Shown: piece after piece, positions 26,289-37,663 of the stretch | Position numbering within the stretch: position 1 is the stretch's first letter | How the letters are laid out: each line of letters starts with the position of its first letter | Sequence record: PV874203.1 | DNA: 64,000 nt | Source: a phage | Reading direction: 5' to 3' (one strand) | The notes under the pieces: generated by a model | Seen by the model: the letters and a program-made list of their open reading frames with translations, nothing else | Told to the model about the DNA's origin: nothing | Database searches by the model: none | Made by a program: the position numbers and the translations under genes

Positions 26289-26895
26289 CATTTATGTTAT
26301 TCCCAAATTACTTCGGGTATCGGACTATATCATAACAGCATAGCTAATTTGCTGTTGTTGGCGCTTCGAGGGTTTCCCTGTTAACCCCCTACTCCCGCAG
26401 GATAGTCTCTACACTTTCCACTTTCGAATCCATCTACAAGCGATTCCAAAGCTCACACCAAACCTTTCTGCAAGAGCAACACCAGTACATTCATTATTAA
26501 GCCAGAACTCTTTAGCAGCATCCTGTCTTTCTCTGTTTCTACCAGTATTTGATTCTATGGCATGTGCACTACCTTCTAAGATCTCTAGATGATCAGTGTT
26601 ACAACATGCCCTATTCTTGCATTTGTGGTTAACTTCGTAGCCGTCAGGAATGTTTCCAAACTTCTCTTCCATGACATACCTATGATACATGACCCATTTG
26701 CCATTTATCACTTTTCGAAAGTATCCATCTTTATTTAATTTGTGTGAGATAGGGATGATACATCCTGTGCTAGTTGTTTCTAGCACTAGATCTTTCTTAG
26801 CCATATCACCTCCTAATAGCTTAGCTCGGTATTGCCCTCAACTTAATGGTCGGGTTTCACCGAGTTCACCAACTTTTACATGCACAATGAAGTTT
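26289..26895 (-). mobile_element. putative group I intron in the DNA polymerase gene, carrying an HNH endonuclease ORF
   Basis: Upstream exon would end in U (…GAUAUGCAU), intron ends in G (…AUAAAUG) before GAUGAG; 3' part contains AGACUAUCCUGCGGG and AUGAUAUAGUCCG, matching conserved group I R/S elements (GACUA/UAGUC = P7). Boundaries approximate. Confidence 0.55.
26409..26804 (-). CDS. HNH homing endonuclease (intron-encoded)
   Basis: HRYVMEEKFGNIPDGYEVNHKCKNRACCNTDHLE HNH motif; strong RBS TAGGAGGTGAT; sits between the two polymerase segments. Confidence 0.7.
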   Translation of the reverse strand: MAKKDLVLETTSTGCIIPISHKLNKDGYFRKVINGKWVMYHRYVMEEKFGNIPDGYEVNHKCKNRACCNTDHLEILEGSAHAIESNTGRNRERQDAAKEFWLNNECTGVALAERFGVSFGIACRWIRKWKV

Positions 26896-28587
26896 ATGCA
26901 TATCAATTACCTTAGCACAACGAACCTTATCTCTCTCAATCCACTTGTTAAGGAACATCATAGCATATTTCATAACAACAGCACCAGCACATTGCAGGAG
27001 AGTGTTAAGTGCTTTATGAACCATAACCTTACCAGTGGCATCTCGTCTCATTGTAATCTTACGACCATCAACACCAATCAAGTACCCTTGAGCAGCTTTC
27101 TCTGTCATACGATCAATGAGGATTGCAATACATGGGTTCTCTGCCAAGAAACGTGCTCGCATCACTGAACCTTCGTCAGCCCCACCACCTACAATTGAAC
27201 CGAGCTTAGCATCACCAGCACCATAGTTGAATGCGTAGATAAATGTCTTAGCGTTGTCACGAGTAGGAAGACCAGCAAGTTTCTGGTTGTGGGAGTGTAT
27301 ATCACCTTCAAGGAGAATATCACGATACATAATAGCAGAAGCTAAACCACGTTCTGCCAGAGCTTTCTTAGCTGGATTGTTTTCTTCTATTGCTTCAGCA
27401 AGCATATCCCTACACTCTTTAATGAGGTAGTGTGCAAGCATACGCAACTCTAACCCAGAACCATCATACCCCAAGAATACTTCTTTACCAGCGGGTATGT
27501 AATATTTGTAAGCACCTACAGGTTTGTCTTTCTTCCCCGGCTTACCTTTCTCATAAATTACGTTAGTACCTTTTCGTATATAACAACCATCAGGAACAAC
27601 GTTAGTAATAACGAAAGGACGAGAGTGATCATCATCTGAGTTATAGTCAGATTCAAACAAACTGCGACACTCATGACCAAACAAACCACGGGAGGGAATA
27701 TTAACCACGATACGATGTTTGAATCGAAAAGTCGGCGTAGCGCAGCTGTTAGCTTCTGCCGAAAGTTTACCATCTTCGCGCTCCTTTGCTATAAGTCCAC
27801 TAATAAGACCTAGCCTGTGAGCCGCTACAACGCGTCTCTTAAGCAAACTTCCGACACTCCCTAGCTCACCCCCTAACCCTTCTTCAAGAGTCTCCTCGAG
27901 GTTTGTAGGGGCTGTAGGCCACTTGTTTGAGGTAGCTAGTGCTATCTTAATCTCATCAAAAGTAATAGGTCTACGTCGGTTAGGATTTAAACCTAAACCA
28001 AACACATAAGCCTTCATGTAGTTCTTAGTTTTAAACCGAAAATGCTTCTCTAAGAACTTTCTAATATCAGCGTCAACCATCTCGGCTGTCTGCTTCTGTT
28101 TAGCATTACCTCGCATCCAAGCTGAATACCATGCTTGGTATGTTCCATACTTTCGCATATCTTTCTTGATTTCAAAAGTATTCCAAGGTTTCTTTGATAC
28201 ATTAAACTCTGGAGGAAGAAAACCCTCATCCATAAGGGCTTCTTTAACTCGGGCATCTTTCGATGGGTCAAAGGCTACGTACTCTACACAGGTGAATGCT
28301 CCACCAATGTCTTCTCTCTTAAGTCCAACCCTATCACAATAGGCTTGAGGCCACTTCTGTAAAGCTCCAGACTTCTTAAATGGCTTCATATAAGTAGAGC
28401 CATCTAATCTCATCTTAGGTAAGAGAGGAATCAGTTCTTTGTCAATATTAACAATAATCTCTTTAAGGAGGTGAACATACCACCGAGCATTTCTTCGGTT
28501 GAAACTCACTCCGTGCTTCGCTTGCTTAGAGATTATATCAGCGACAGTCATCTCTGTCAAAAATGGGAGAGCGTCCGGGTTGCTCAC
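26866..28587 (-). CDS. DNA polymerase, family A (T7 gp5-like), polymerase domain; ORF runs into the intron
   Basis: RDNAKTFIYAFNYGAGDAKLG matches motif B of T7-type polymerases; ORF ends before motif C, which is supplied by 26136..26288. If spliced, the exon ends near 26896. Confidence 0.8.
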   Translation of the reverse strand: MSNPDALPFLTEMTVADIISKQAKHGVSFNRRNARWYVHLLKEIIVNIDKELIPLLPKMRLDGSTYMKPFKKSGALQKWPQAYCDRVGLKREDIGGAFTCVEYVAFDPSKDARVKEALMDEGFLPPEFNVSKKPWNTFEIKKDMRKYGTYQAWYSAWMRGNAKQKQTAEMVDADIRKFLEKHFRFKTKNYMKAYVFGLGLNPNRRRPITFDEIKIALATSNKWPTAPTNLEETLEEGLGGELGSVGSLLKRRVVAAHRLGLISGLIAKEREDGKLSAEANSCATPTFRFKHRIVVNIPSRGLFGHECRSLFESDYNSDDDHSRPFVITNVVPDGCYIRKGTNVIYEKGKPGKKDKPVGAYKYYIPAGKEVFLGYDGSGLELRMLAHYLIKECRDMLAEAIEENNPAKKALAERGLASAIMYRDILLEGDIHSHNQKLAGLPTRDNAKTFIYAFNYGAGDAKLGSIVGGGADEGSVMRARFLAENPCIAILIDRMTEKAAQGYLIGVDGRKITMRRDATGKVMVHKALNTLLQCAGAVVMKYAMMFLNKWIERDKVRCAKVIDMHKLHCACKSW

Positions 28588-28603
28588 TTTATACTCCTTT
28601 AAA

Positions 28604-35763: not shown

Positions 35764-37107
35764 TTAACGAATGTTTTGTGAATTTAACAGATGGTCTAAT
35801 TCCCCACCAACCTGAGGCTCTAATACTTCAGGGTTGTTGTCAACAAATCTATCAGCGAGATTGCGGCTGACGGTCTCAGCTAACTCACCATGAGAAGGGA
35901 TATCAAGATCACCGACAGTGGGACTCTGAGCAGATGCTTCATCAGTCCATATAACACGAGCAGCTTGGTCAATACCACCAACAGCAAAACCCTGACCAGA
36001 GAACTGGTGACGGCTAGCAGTCAAACCATTTGACAGACCACTAGAACGTCTAGACAACCACCGATCAAACGAATCGCTGGTAACACCAAGAGCCTCTTCA
36101 AAAGATGTTCTACGAGTAGGGCTTTCTCTTCGTGCCTCTTGTGCTCGACGTCTTGCAGGTACTGCAAACAAACCTTCAATAGCATTGTGTCGGTTAGGTT
36201 CTTCTTCCCGACCAAGCAGATCACCACCCGTATTGGTTGTTAAGTCTGTCAACCCTTCAGACCAATACGCATGAACCCGATCAGAGCCGTTAAGACTCGA
36301 CATTAACTGAATCTCTTCATAAGGTATACCAAAGAATCGACTCATATCTCGGTCAACACAATACTGAGCACTTGTTGTATCCTCAATAAGAGCAACCTGA
36401 CCCCGTTCGTTGACCAGATGACTGATCGGTTGAGGTGTAGGAAGGTATCGAGTTTGGGCCATGTATTGATGTGCAACTGCTGGAGATGAAAATCTCAATA
36501 CCTGAGAATTAGGCCATTTCTTGTGAACATATCTGATTTCACGACTAGAAACAACAACAGGGCAAGGGGCGGTCATCGCCAAATATCCATGAGAAGTCAT
36601 GAATAGGTTGTCAAGAGTCATCGCACCACGGCACATCATAGGGAAATTATCCATGACTTCTTCAATAGAAGTAGGATAGTTAAACATGAATTGGATTCGG
36701 GTTCCATTCCACTGAAACTCAATAATATCAGTGAATGTTAGTCGAGAATTACCAGCATAGGGTTCGTCTGTAGCTTCAGCAAGAAGAGATGCATGCTCAA
36801 TACCTTGTGACTCAAGCCACTCTTTCACATTGCTCTCAATCTCACGCCCAAGATCTTGCCACTGTTCGTGACGGATGAAAGTGTTTTGTGTTCTTGGTGT
36901 TTGCCCTCTGACGATAAAGATATCAATGTCATGAGGTGCTATGTTATTAAGAACAGCATCACGAACAGCCCCACCAGTAATGATGGGACAGATACCGTCT
37001 GGAACCAAGTTGTTGTTAATCAACTGTTCAATGAAATGACGACCAACAGTGATATCGGGTTGTTGAGCAACCTTATCTTCAATTTGGTTAATCGGGATAA
37101 CAATCAT
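35764..37107 (-). CDS. nucleotidyltransferase with CCA-adding / poly(A) polymerase-type head domain, long C-terminal extension
   Basis: ICPIITGGAVRDAVLNNIAPHDIDIFIV matches the GGAVRD + DxD head motif of class II tRNA nucleotidyltransferases; start set at the ATG right after the exo-domain stop. Confidence 0.6.
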   Translation of the reverse strand: MIVIPINQIEDKVAQQPDITVGRHFIEQLINNNLVPDGICPIITGGAVRDAVLNNIAPHDIDIFIVRGQTPRTQNTFIRHEQWQDLGREIESNVKEWLESQGIEHASLLAEATDEPYAGNSRLTFTDIIEFQWNGTRIQFMFNYPTSIEEVMDNFPMMCRGAMTLDNLFMTSHGYLAMTAPCPVVVSSREIRYVHKKWPNSQVLRFSSPAVAHQYMAQTRYLPTPQPISHLVNERGQVALIEDTTSAQYCVDRDMSRFFGIPYEEIQLMSSLNGSDRVHAYWSEGLTDLTTNTGGDLLGREEEPNRHNAIEGLFAVPARRRAQEARRESPTRRTSFEEALGVTSDSFDRWLSRRSSGLSNGLTASRHQFSGQGFAVGGIDQAARVIWTDEASAQSPTVGDLDIPSHGELAETVSRNLADRFVDNNPEVLEPQVGGELDHLLNSQNIR

Positions 37108-37108
37108 T

Positions 37109-37663
37109 TTACATTTTCCAATATAATGAAGGTGGGTCGTAAGGGTCAAATCCTGTGAGTTCACACAAGTATTTATAAACCTTAACAGTTAAGTTAACGT
37201 CCTGTTCACAGTAAGTAAACATATCTTCAGTGAAAGCATCCCATGCTTCCTCTTGCTCACCGTAATCTCCTTTAAGTTCCTCTAAGAACTCACCCCATTG
37301 CTTCAAACCATGACCTCTTGGGCCATGTCTGGGGTCGCCTTTCGGATACTCAGGACTGTCACCAATACGGTCAGGTTTAAGATATCGACTAAGACACAAG
37401 GTGTCGAAGACGTTAAAACGATAGTCGATCAGATTGGGATACATCTTCTTCAGAGCACAAAGGTCGAAGTCGATAATATTATGACCTACGAGCACATCAG
37501 CTTCTGTAAGTTTACGAATCCCATCTTCAATTTGGTGAGGCCGATAGCCCCACCTTTCACCAGTTTCAACATCGAAGATATAAATACACCATACTTTAGT
37601 TATGTCGTCGTATAGTGCATTACTCTCGATATCAAATGCAAACACTTTCTTTTTCTTTACCAC
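37109..37663 (-). CDS. DNA polymerase 3'-5' exonuclease domain (T7 gp5 N-terminal-like), separate polypeptide
   Basis: [35 protein letters not shown] aligns with the T7 DNA polymerase N-terminus; Exo I (FDIES), Exo II (HNIIDFD), Exo III (YCEQDV); ORF ends in a stop after 184 aa. Confidence 0.75.

Follow-up and report, generated by a model that had tools for sequence, protein, structure and literature searches.

The question raised by this locus is how a DNA polymerase of the T7 gp5 type, which in T7 is one 704-aa chain working with host thioredoxin, comes to be encoded as two chains by genes lying 8.5 kb apart, and whether the thioredoxin gene between them belongs to the same enzyme. The DNA analysed (hereafter the window) is a stretch of 64,000 nt from record PV874203.1. 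It belongs to a Kuravirus (phiEco32-like) coliphage and the region concerned carries its genes for DNA replication and nucleotide metabolism: 109 phage records are 91-95% identical to the region at the DNA level, 40 phage records span 80% or more of this 12-kb region, and phiEco32 (Kuravirus, Gordonclarkvirinae) is collinear with the whole window, with the same gene order and spacing. We put at about 90% the probability of the reading developed below, namely that this is a Kuravirus replication block in which a gp5-type gene has undergone fission and the resulting polymerase gene is interrupted by an intron.

The initial annotation had placed the polymerase domain in the ORF at 26866..28587 and had missed the intron. 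This ORF breaks off within motif C, where '...VIDMH' runs into 9 residues read from the intron, and it is missing the catalytic Asp-Glu as well as the C-terminal 50 residues of the protein. The true gene consists of exon 1 (26896..28587, complementary strand; codons 1-564, the last being His564 of motif C), a 607-nt intron (26289..26895, complementary strand) and exon 2 (26136..26288, complementary strand; codons 565-614, from the motif C Asp-Glu to the C-terminal His, followed by the stop codon). Exon 1 was delimited by aligning it with the genes of phiEco32 and IMEP8, which are uninterrupted, by splice reconstruction and by the Pfam DNA_pol_A match, and exon 2 by splice reconstruction, its product aligning with the C-terminus of T7 gp5. 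Since the intron sits between His564 and Asp565, motif C is complete only once the intron is removed. The spliced polymerase of 614 aa is 98.4% identical, without any gap, to its orthologue phiEco32 gp53, the gene of which is intron-free. That the reading frame is restored exactly, giving a product this close to an intron-less orthologue, suggests that the intron is self-splicing. Self-splicing of the pre-mRNA would then be needed for an active polymerase, because the unspliced frame stops after the 9 intron codons, before the catalytic Asp-Glu.

The intron is a group I intron, subgroup IA-like, and is absent at the exact insertion point in phiEco32 and IMEP8. Its 5′ splice site follows U26896 and its omega-G is nucleotide 26289; P1 is formed by exon AUGCAU and the internal guide sequence GUGCAU of the intron and places a U.G pair at the 5′ splice site, and one A-U pair of this helix is G-C instead in T7-like phages and RCIP0053. 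The Rfam Intron_gpI model matched at 27.2 bits (E = 1.4e-4), which does not reach the gathering cut-off of 50. In a comparison of 8 homologous introns over 39 base pairs, 99.7% of the cells were paired and 10 pairs showed compensatory changes, against 30-51% paired in a control with slid partners. The helix alignment covers the P3-P9 core including the P3/P7 pseudoknot, with P6 and P8 not placed in register, and the helices include two labelled here P7.1 and P7.2. Within the intron, a 131-aa putative HNH homing endonuclease is encoded at 26409..26804 (complementary strand; Pfam HNH_3, E = 7.6e-12), with an AGGAGG ribosome-binding site ahead of it; the protein shares 57-61% identity with its HNH counterparts in the introns of 13a, Sekstaphage-1, Vp_R1 and RCIP0053.

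Group I introns carrying an HNH gene of the I-TslI family are described in gene 5 of the T7-like phages PhiI, W31 and 13a (Bonocora and Shub 2004, as cited in PMC3428280). The window intron occupies the same insertion point between the motif C His and Asp codons ('site 881'), which is also the site of the annotated intron of 13a. It has the same helices, with compensatory changes, an HNH ORF equal in position and length, and a ribozyme core sharing about 69% identity with the 13a core, but its host gene is an exonuclease-less Kuravirus polymerase. Judged on sequence, the polymerase gene is cut between the motif C His and Asp codons by a predicted mobile group I intron. The same intron is found in about eight related Kuravirus-like isolates. 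In Kuravirus records the intron ORF is listed as 'hypothetical protein' or left unannotated, except in PE006, SU7 and ECBP2. The records inspected (ECBP2, PAS59 and 1-6af) give the polymerase as two ORFs instead of a joined CDS, the fragments being labelled 'DNA polymerase' or 'hypothetical protein'.

Once spliced, the polymerase is a family A enzyme of the T7 gp5 type, closest to T7 gp5 rather than to bacterial Pol I. The residues of motifs A, B and C (D375, K447/Y451 and H564-D565-E566) fall in invariant columns aligned with T7, where the counterparts are D475, K522/Y526 and D654/E655. With phmmer, T7 gp5 was matched at E = 5e-33 versus 5e-6 for Klenow. An AlphaFold model (pLDDT 91.8) of P0001, a protein 99% identical to the spliced polymerase, gave the same ranking in Foldseek: the top 27 matches were all T7 gp5 (E about 1e-26 to 1e-19), while the Bst, Taq and Klenow polymerases followed at about 1e-16. 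T7 gp5 (PDB 1T7P and related entries) is the best match in sequence and structure for the polymerase as well as for the exonuclease discussed below. Unlike T7 gp5, however, the window polymerase carries three further insertions besides a shorter thumb insertion, and the N-terminal 3′-5′ exonuclease domain is absent from the chain, which begins at the inter-domain linker. The third activity of Pol I-type enzymes also has a gene of its own, a separate 5′-3′ exonuclease at 19686..20501 (complementary strand), orthologous to phiEco32 gp33 (98% identity by tblastn), for which the RefSeq note reads 'similar to exonuclease domain of DNA polymerase I'.

The 3′-5′ exonuclease itself is a 184-aa protein encoded at 37109..37663 (complementary strand) and orthologous to phiEco32 gp74 (95-97% identity). 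Its three Exo motifs, already recognized in the initial annotation, were recovered in the alignments (Exo I, D11-x-E13; Exo II, N62/D67; Exo III, Y151-x3-D155), the Exo I-III residues of T7 gp5 being conserved. The close similarity to the T7 gp5 N-terminus that had been claimed holds as to type, whereas the identity of about 32% is only moderate. The best Pfam family is DNA_pol_A_exo1 (E = 1.1e-8), and the four sequence matches found in the PDB with E < 1 are all T7 gp5 (residues 3-182, E = 1.3e-10); a proofreading exonuclease of the DnaQ/epsilon type was rejected on both counts. The protein is a T7 gp5-type proofreading domain by predicted function. Upstream, its start overlaps by 7 nt the stop of a T7 gp4-type primase/helicase gene (37657..39447, complementary strand; Pfam DnaB_C, E = 9.9e-11, with a weak Toprim_2 match; orthologous to phiEco32 gp75). 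Downstream, its stop codon (37109..37111) is closely followed, as had been noted, by a nucleotidyltransferase-like gene unrelated to the polymerase (35764..37107, complementary strand; weak match to the PolyA_pol head domain, E = 0.0018; orthologous to phiEco32 gp73), with one base separating the stop from the ATG at 37107. The genes reported to lie between exonuclease and polymerase are all present, that is, ThyX (31975..32631), thioredoxin, a ferritin/Dps-like gene (33165..33728), a free-standing HNH gene (33721..34215) that phiEco32 lacks, and dCTP deaminase (35218..35751); ligase domain Ia and PhoH are found there as well.

The thioredoxin gene (32644..32919, complementary strand) specifies a 91-aa protein whose active site reads CAPC (Pfam Thioredoxin, E = 2.1e-13) and which is 98-99% identical to phiEco32 gp65. 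T7 gp5 binds host thioredoxin 1:1 with a gain in processivity. The window thioredoxin differs in being phage-encoded and N-terminally truncated: it is 31% identical to E. coli TrxA over TrxA residues 25-108, and about 22 N-terminal residues of TrxA are missing. The family is confined to Kuravirus, Grimontviridae, Privateer-like phages and a few others. Where T7 gp5 carries its thioredoxin-binding domain, the polymerase thumb has an insertion of 48 aa, compared with 77 aa (29 more) in T7, which shares with the T7 domain, in its C-terminal half, the segment REx[VI]xGxP[FY]TxVE[HY]VxF[ND]PS and is predicted by the structure model to be a folded mini-domain, not a flexible loop. The phage thioredoxin may bind this shortened insertion as a processivity subunit, or it may serve as a redox carrier for dNTP synthesis. 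A role as polymerase processivity factor, as proposed in 2021 for this phage group (PMC7881722), is only plausible. In SU10, a related phage, mass spectrometry has shown that the protein is made (PMC4281155).

The data agree just as well with a redox role, for instance that of supplying electrons to the class I ribonucleotide reductase of the host, and we give even odds to thioredoxin being a nucleotide metabolism protein rather than a polymerase subunit. T4 NrdC serves the T4 ribonucleotide reductase in this way. The gene lies among ThyX, dCTP deaminase and PhoH, and in A24 and Proteus phage YP1 it is near ribonucleotide reductase genes. Furthermore, the thumb insertion is not restricted to thioredoxin-encoding phages: it is present in LUZ24-like and fused relatives, in which no thioredoxin gene was found near the polymerase. 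The CxPC motif and cis-Pro are invariant among phage homologues only about 40% identical, which suits a redox function at least as well, but this conservation cannot tell the two roles apart because T7 polymerase binds thioredoxin through the same active-site face. On the other hand, no ribonucleotide reductase is annotated in phiEco32, TrxA is available from E. coli anyway, and a thioredoxin-fold gene is located between exonuclease and polymerase in five of the five lineages examined that carry one. The most elaborate version of the processivity model, a three-gene gp5/thioredoxin holoenzyme made of the free exonuclease, the exonuclease-less polymerase with a short, rigid, co-evolved thumb insertion, and a phage thioredoxin independent of host TrxA, seems to us possible though rather unlikely; it is already in print (PMC7881722), so that only its demonstration would be new.

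That the two parts of the polymerase are separately encoded, as the initial annotation had proposed, was borne out by comparison of relatives, as was conservation of the split. Separate exonuclease and polymerase genes occur in every Kuravirus-like genome examined and in Grimontviridae (7-11, A24), LUZ24-like phages and metagenomic relatives; in a Privateer-like Proteus phage the exonuclease gene alone was seen. Among the 120 polymerase homologues listed (490-618 aa), 114 have PF00476 only and 4 have no Pfam match on record, the exonuclease domain being found only in the fused proteins P0115 and P0117. The window exonuclease aligns with residues 5-154 of P0117 and the polymerase alignment starts just past residue 154, meaning that the two proteins tile the fused homologue end to end. 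The order primase/helicase, exonuclease, polymerase is kept across relatives, while the gap between the last two ranges from 1.6 kb in LUZ24-like SCYZ1 through 3.2 kb in metagenome contig L018, 6.7 kb in 7-11, 7.7 kb in A24 and 8.0 kb in phiEco32 to the 8.5 kb, or about 25 genes, of the window, where the polymerase lies downstream. As in T7, the genes come after a gp4-type primase/helicase gene. A gp5-type gene has most probably been broken at the linker between its exonuclease and polymerase domains; the exonuclease domain stayed directly behind the primase/helicase gene, and nucleotide metabolism and accessory genes accumulated in between.

The two chains probably associate as subunits and would reassemble non-covalently into a gp5-like holoenzyme working with the primase/helicase. 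Alternatively, the exonuclease could act independently of the polymerase, for example by taking part in recombination, in the breakdown of host DNA or in the processing of primers, leaving the polymerase without proofreading. The distance of about 25 genes would fit such independence, as would the overlap of the exonuclease gene with the primase/helicase gene and not with that of the polymerase. Yet the protein is specifically a gp5-type editing domain with intact catalytic residues, an exonuclease gene sits behind the primase/helicase in each lineage with an exonuclease-less polymerase whose neighbourhood held it, and together with the polymerase the window protein accounts for the fused homologue with nothing missing; we consider independence improbable. 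An origin of the split in faulty assembly or sequencing, or its repair after translation by a split intein, was rejected and is hardly credible, because the 40 records covering the region and the collinearity of phiEco32 rule out misassembly, the same arrangement is seen in more than 100 independently sequenced phages, and the 184-aa and 614-aa proteins are gp5-homologous apart from a 15-residue tail, which leaves no room for intein halves.

A close parallel outside the Kuravirus group is offered by LUZ24-like Pseudomonas phages (Bruynoghevirus), in which the products are named 'DNA polymerase part I' and 'part II'. They share the fission point and the order primase/helicase, exonuclease, small genes, polymerase, and their polymerases are 39-44% identical to that of the window. 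They differ in a gap of only about 1.6 kb, in having no detected thioredoxin-like gene in the stretch examined, and in the lack of the insertion at window polymerase residues 391-420. The LUZ24-like and phiEco32-like splits have already been equated (PMC3517423), and the split has been described as shared by all Kuravirus-like phages, by their relatives and by the LUZ24 group (PMC3517423, PMC9965538). In RefSeq, phiEco32 gp74 is the 'DNA polymerase exonuclease subunit' and gp53 the 'DNA polymerase, lacks exonuclease domains'. The observation is real but already known: the phiEco32 record has shown the split polymerase since 2008, and the ideas on both the split and the thioredoxin are published (RefSeq notes; PMC3517423, PMC9965538, PMC7881722).

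The importance of the finding beyond correct annotation is accordingly small. For the phage of the window and about eight related isolates, the polymerase gene warrants a joined CDS across the group I intron. The system would also lend itself, as a natural case, to asking how a Pol A editing domain acts in trans and whether phages can provide a thioredoxin clamp of their own.

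The 184-aa product of the ORF at 37109..37663 (minus strand) matches the Pfam family DNA_pol_A_exo1, and the Exo I, II and III residues of T7 have their aligned counterparts in D11/E13, N62/D67 and Y151/D155, so that all three exonuclease motifs recognized in the initial annotation are indeed present. The similarity to the T7 gp5 N-terminus, described there as close, is correct as to family, but the identity is only ~32%. In sequence comparisons against the PDB, matches were limited to T7 gp5 (residues 3-182, E = 1.3e-10), ruling out a DnaQ-type exonuclease. The 3′ end of a gp4-type primase/helicase gene (37657..39447), with its stop, extends 7 nt into the exonuclease gene, and directly behind the stop of the exonuclease gene, one base later, begins the expected nucleotidyltransferase-like gene (35764..37107, minus strand). 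The latter shows a weak match to the PolyA_pol head domain over its first ~125 residues, while no Pfam family was matched by the long C-terminal region of the protein. An assembly artefact joining unrelated sequences can be excluded, because a 12-kb query around the finding is shared by 109 phage records at 80-99% identity (at least 80% of the query being covered in 40 of them), nearly all from Kuravirus (Gordonclarkvirinae) of Escherichia or Shigella and including phiEco32, with which the entire window is collinear.

The polymerase is likewise of the T7 type. Its best PDB sequence match was T7 gp5 (E = 5e-33, vs 5e-6 for Klenow), and when the AlphaFold model (pLDDT 91.8) of the homologue P0001, which shares 99% identity with the spliced protein, was submitted to Foldseek, all of the top 27 hits were T7 gp5. 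There is a polymerase ORF at 26866..28587, as initially annotated, but it is incomplete, because the gene is interrupted by a group I intron encoding an HNH homing endonuclease (26289..26895, minus strand, 607 nt) that is not found in phiEco32. That is, the ORF terminates within polymerase motif C (...CAKVIDMH-KLHCACKSW*), and alignment to the uninterrupted genes of phiEco32 and phage IMEP8 places a 607-nt insertion at exactly that point, which is also the only break in the megablast alignment of the polymerase gene to phiEco32. Deleting 26289..26895 in silico joined ...AUG CAU to GAU GAG..., restoring M-H-D-E and giving a gap-free protein of 614 aa with 98.4% identity to phiEco32 gp53. The 3′ core of the intron matched the Rfam group I intron model with 27.2 bits (E = 1.4e-4), which is under the gathering score. 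In its 5′ half, the Rfam alignment extended into HNH coding sequence (the 3′ end of the ORF) and was not trusted; helices P1, P3, P4 and P5 were instead positioned by comparison with other introns. When eight introns representing four lineages were aligned without their ORFs, P1, P3, P4, P5, P7, P7.1, P7.2 and P9 were 99.7% paired, with compensatory changes in 10 pairs, vs just 30-51% of cells paired in a control with slid partners. This count gave the P3/P7 pseudoknot separate brackets and left out P6, which had no convincing placement, and P8, whose register was lost in the MAFFT alignment. P1 consists of exon AUGCAU base-paired to intron GUGCAU, the pair at the splice site being U.G, and the last intron base is G.

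The 131-aa intron HNH protein (26409..26804) is 57-61% identical to the HNH proteins of introns in T7-like phages, Vibrio phage Vp_R1 and Klebsiella phage RCIP0053. At the DNA level, gene 5 of many T7-like phages is interrupted by sequences ~66% identical to the intron of the window, and the polymerase genes of Vp_R1 and RCIP0053 also hold matching sequences. In all of these phages, as in the window, the element lies between the motif C His and Asp codons, an insertion point that corresponds to 'site 881' of the PhiI/W31 intron in the portion of Bonocora and Shub (2004) quoted in PMC3428280. For the T7-like phages 13a and JeanTinguely, the depositors entered a joined CDS for gene 5 and placed the HNH gene inside it. 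Among Kuravirus-like phages, a minority of the records have the intron (PE006, pEC-N1203-2Af.1, 1-6af/bf, FH3, PAS59, SU7 and ECBP2), and in those inspected for ECBP2, PAS59 and 1-6af the polymerase is entered as two separate ORFs. A second group I intron, lacking an ORF, was observed in a Kuravirus-like metagenomic contig (L020, ENA ERZ28621247; 4354..4617; Rfam 102 bits, E = 2.6e-27), where it divides the polymerase gene in motif B, between N and Y of FNYGAGD. About 20 polymerase homologues of ~440-460 aa, including that of Aeromonas phage BUCT695, may be exon-1 fragments like that of L020. The intron of the window belongs to an already known family, of which it is at best a poorly annotated example.

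The initial annotation was right on the positions of the genes in the gap that separates exonuclease from polymerase, namely ThyX, thioredoxin, a ferritin/Dps-like gene, an HNH gene and dCTP deaminase, to which PhoH and a LigA domain Ia encoded on its own can be added. The latter is a 107-aa protein (31649..31972, minus strand; Pfam Nlig-Ia, E = 2.5e-35) consisting solely of the NAD+-binding domain Ia of a LigA-type DNA ligase, and no ligase catalytic domain was noticed near it. The free-standing HNH endonuclease gene (33721..34215, minus strand, 164 aa) overlaps its neighbours on both sides, the Dps-like gene and the gp68 homologue. It is missing from phiEco32 and IMEP8, and the only other phage records in which it was found are the three of XT18, XT73 and ManiMatter_Bas94, at 96-98% identity. 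Two segments of the gap, 31454..32005 and 33729..35214, were left unmatched when megablast was run against phiEco32, despite collinear flanks, and look like small mosaic replacements.

The 91-aa thioredoxin (32644..32919) is a genuine member of its family (Pfam E = 2.1e-13), with 31% identity to E. coli TrxA residues 25-108, the first ~22 residues being missing. The initial annotation had proposed it as a possible processivity factor of the polymerase, a hypothesis already in print for this phage group (PMC7881722), and in the related phage SU10 the protein was identified by mass spectrometry (PMC4281155). An insertion of 48 aa in the polymerase occupies the place of the thioredoxin-binding domain of T7 gp5 (262-338, 77 aa). 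It is predicted to form a folded strand-helix-strand unit (pLDDT near 90) and shares sequence with the C-terminal half of the T7 domain, including the T7 Glu319 position. The thioredoxin family is confined to Kuravirus, Grimontviridae, Privateer-like phages and a few others (129 records), and in all five examined lineages with a Trx-fold gene, this gene is located in the gap separating exonuclease and polymerase. LUZ24-like and fused relatives in which no thioredoxin gene was found nearby have the insertion as well; its presence is therefore not specific to thioredoxin-encoding phages. CxPC and the cis-Pro are invariant among thioredoxin homologues that are ~40% identical, and ribonucleotide reductase is present in relatives of phiEco32, with none annotated in phiEco32 itself. 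Taken together, these data do not discriminate between a structural and a redox role: the phage thioredoxin may act with the polymerase or in redox reactions, the data being compatible with either. In one of the five lineages with a Trx-fold gene in the gap, the distant metagenomic relative L018, this gene encodes a 70-aa mini-thioredoxin with CGPC and the cis-Pro kept (7523..7735), and the polymerase is without another insertion, that at residues 391-420 of the window protein.

Homologue searches, related loci and the literature agree that the split is conserved in related phages. Among the 120 polymerase homologues listed, 114 have PF00476 alone, and for four no Pfam hit is recorded; the remaining two, P0115 and P0117, are the sole fused exonuclease-polymerases. 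The order primase/helicase, exonuclease, polymerase recurs with a gap of variable size: 1.6 kb in the LUZ24-like phage SCYZ1, 3.2 kb in L018, 6.7 and 7.7 kb in phages 7-11 and A24, 8.0 kb in phiEco32 and 8.5 kb in the window. RefSeq already describes phiEco32 gp74 as 'DNA polymerase exonuclease subunit' and gp53 as 'DNA polymerase; lacks 5'-3' and 3'-5' exonuclease domains'. Separate polymerase and proofreading exonuclease genes have been reported throughout LUZ24-group phages, with the remark that a 'similar organization was reported for phiEco32' (PMC3517423), and likewise for all Kuravirus-like phages as well as 7-11, Privateer, Vp_R1 and BUCT695 (PMC9965538). The window exonuclease aligns with residues 5-154 of the fused P0117 and the polymerase alignment starts just after, so that together the two proteins cover a gp5-like chain completely. 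This leaves no room for intein halves, and a split intein or trans-splicing is ruled out, all of the sequence being accounted for. The split polymerase is a real feature, and databases and literature already record it, interpretation included. In the simplest history, a gene-5-like gene would have been split at its inter-domain linker, and further genes would then have accreted in the gap.
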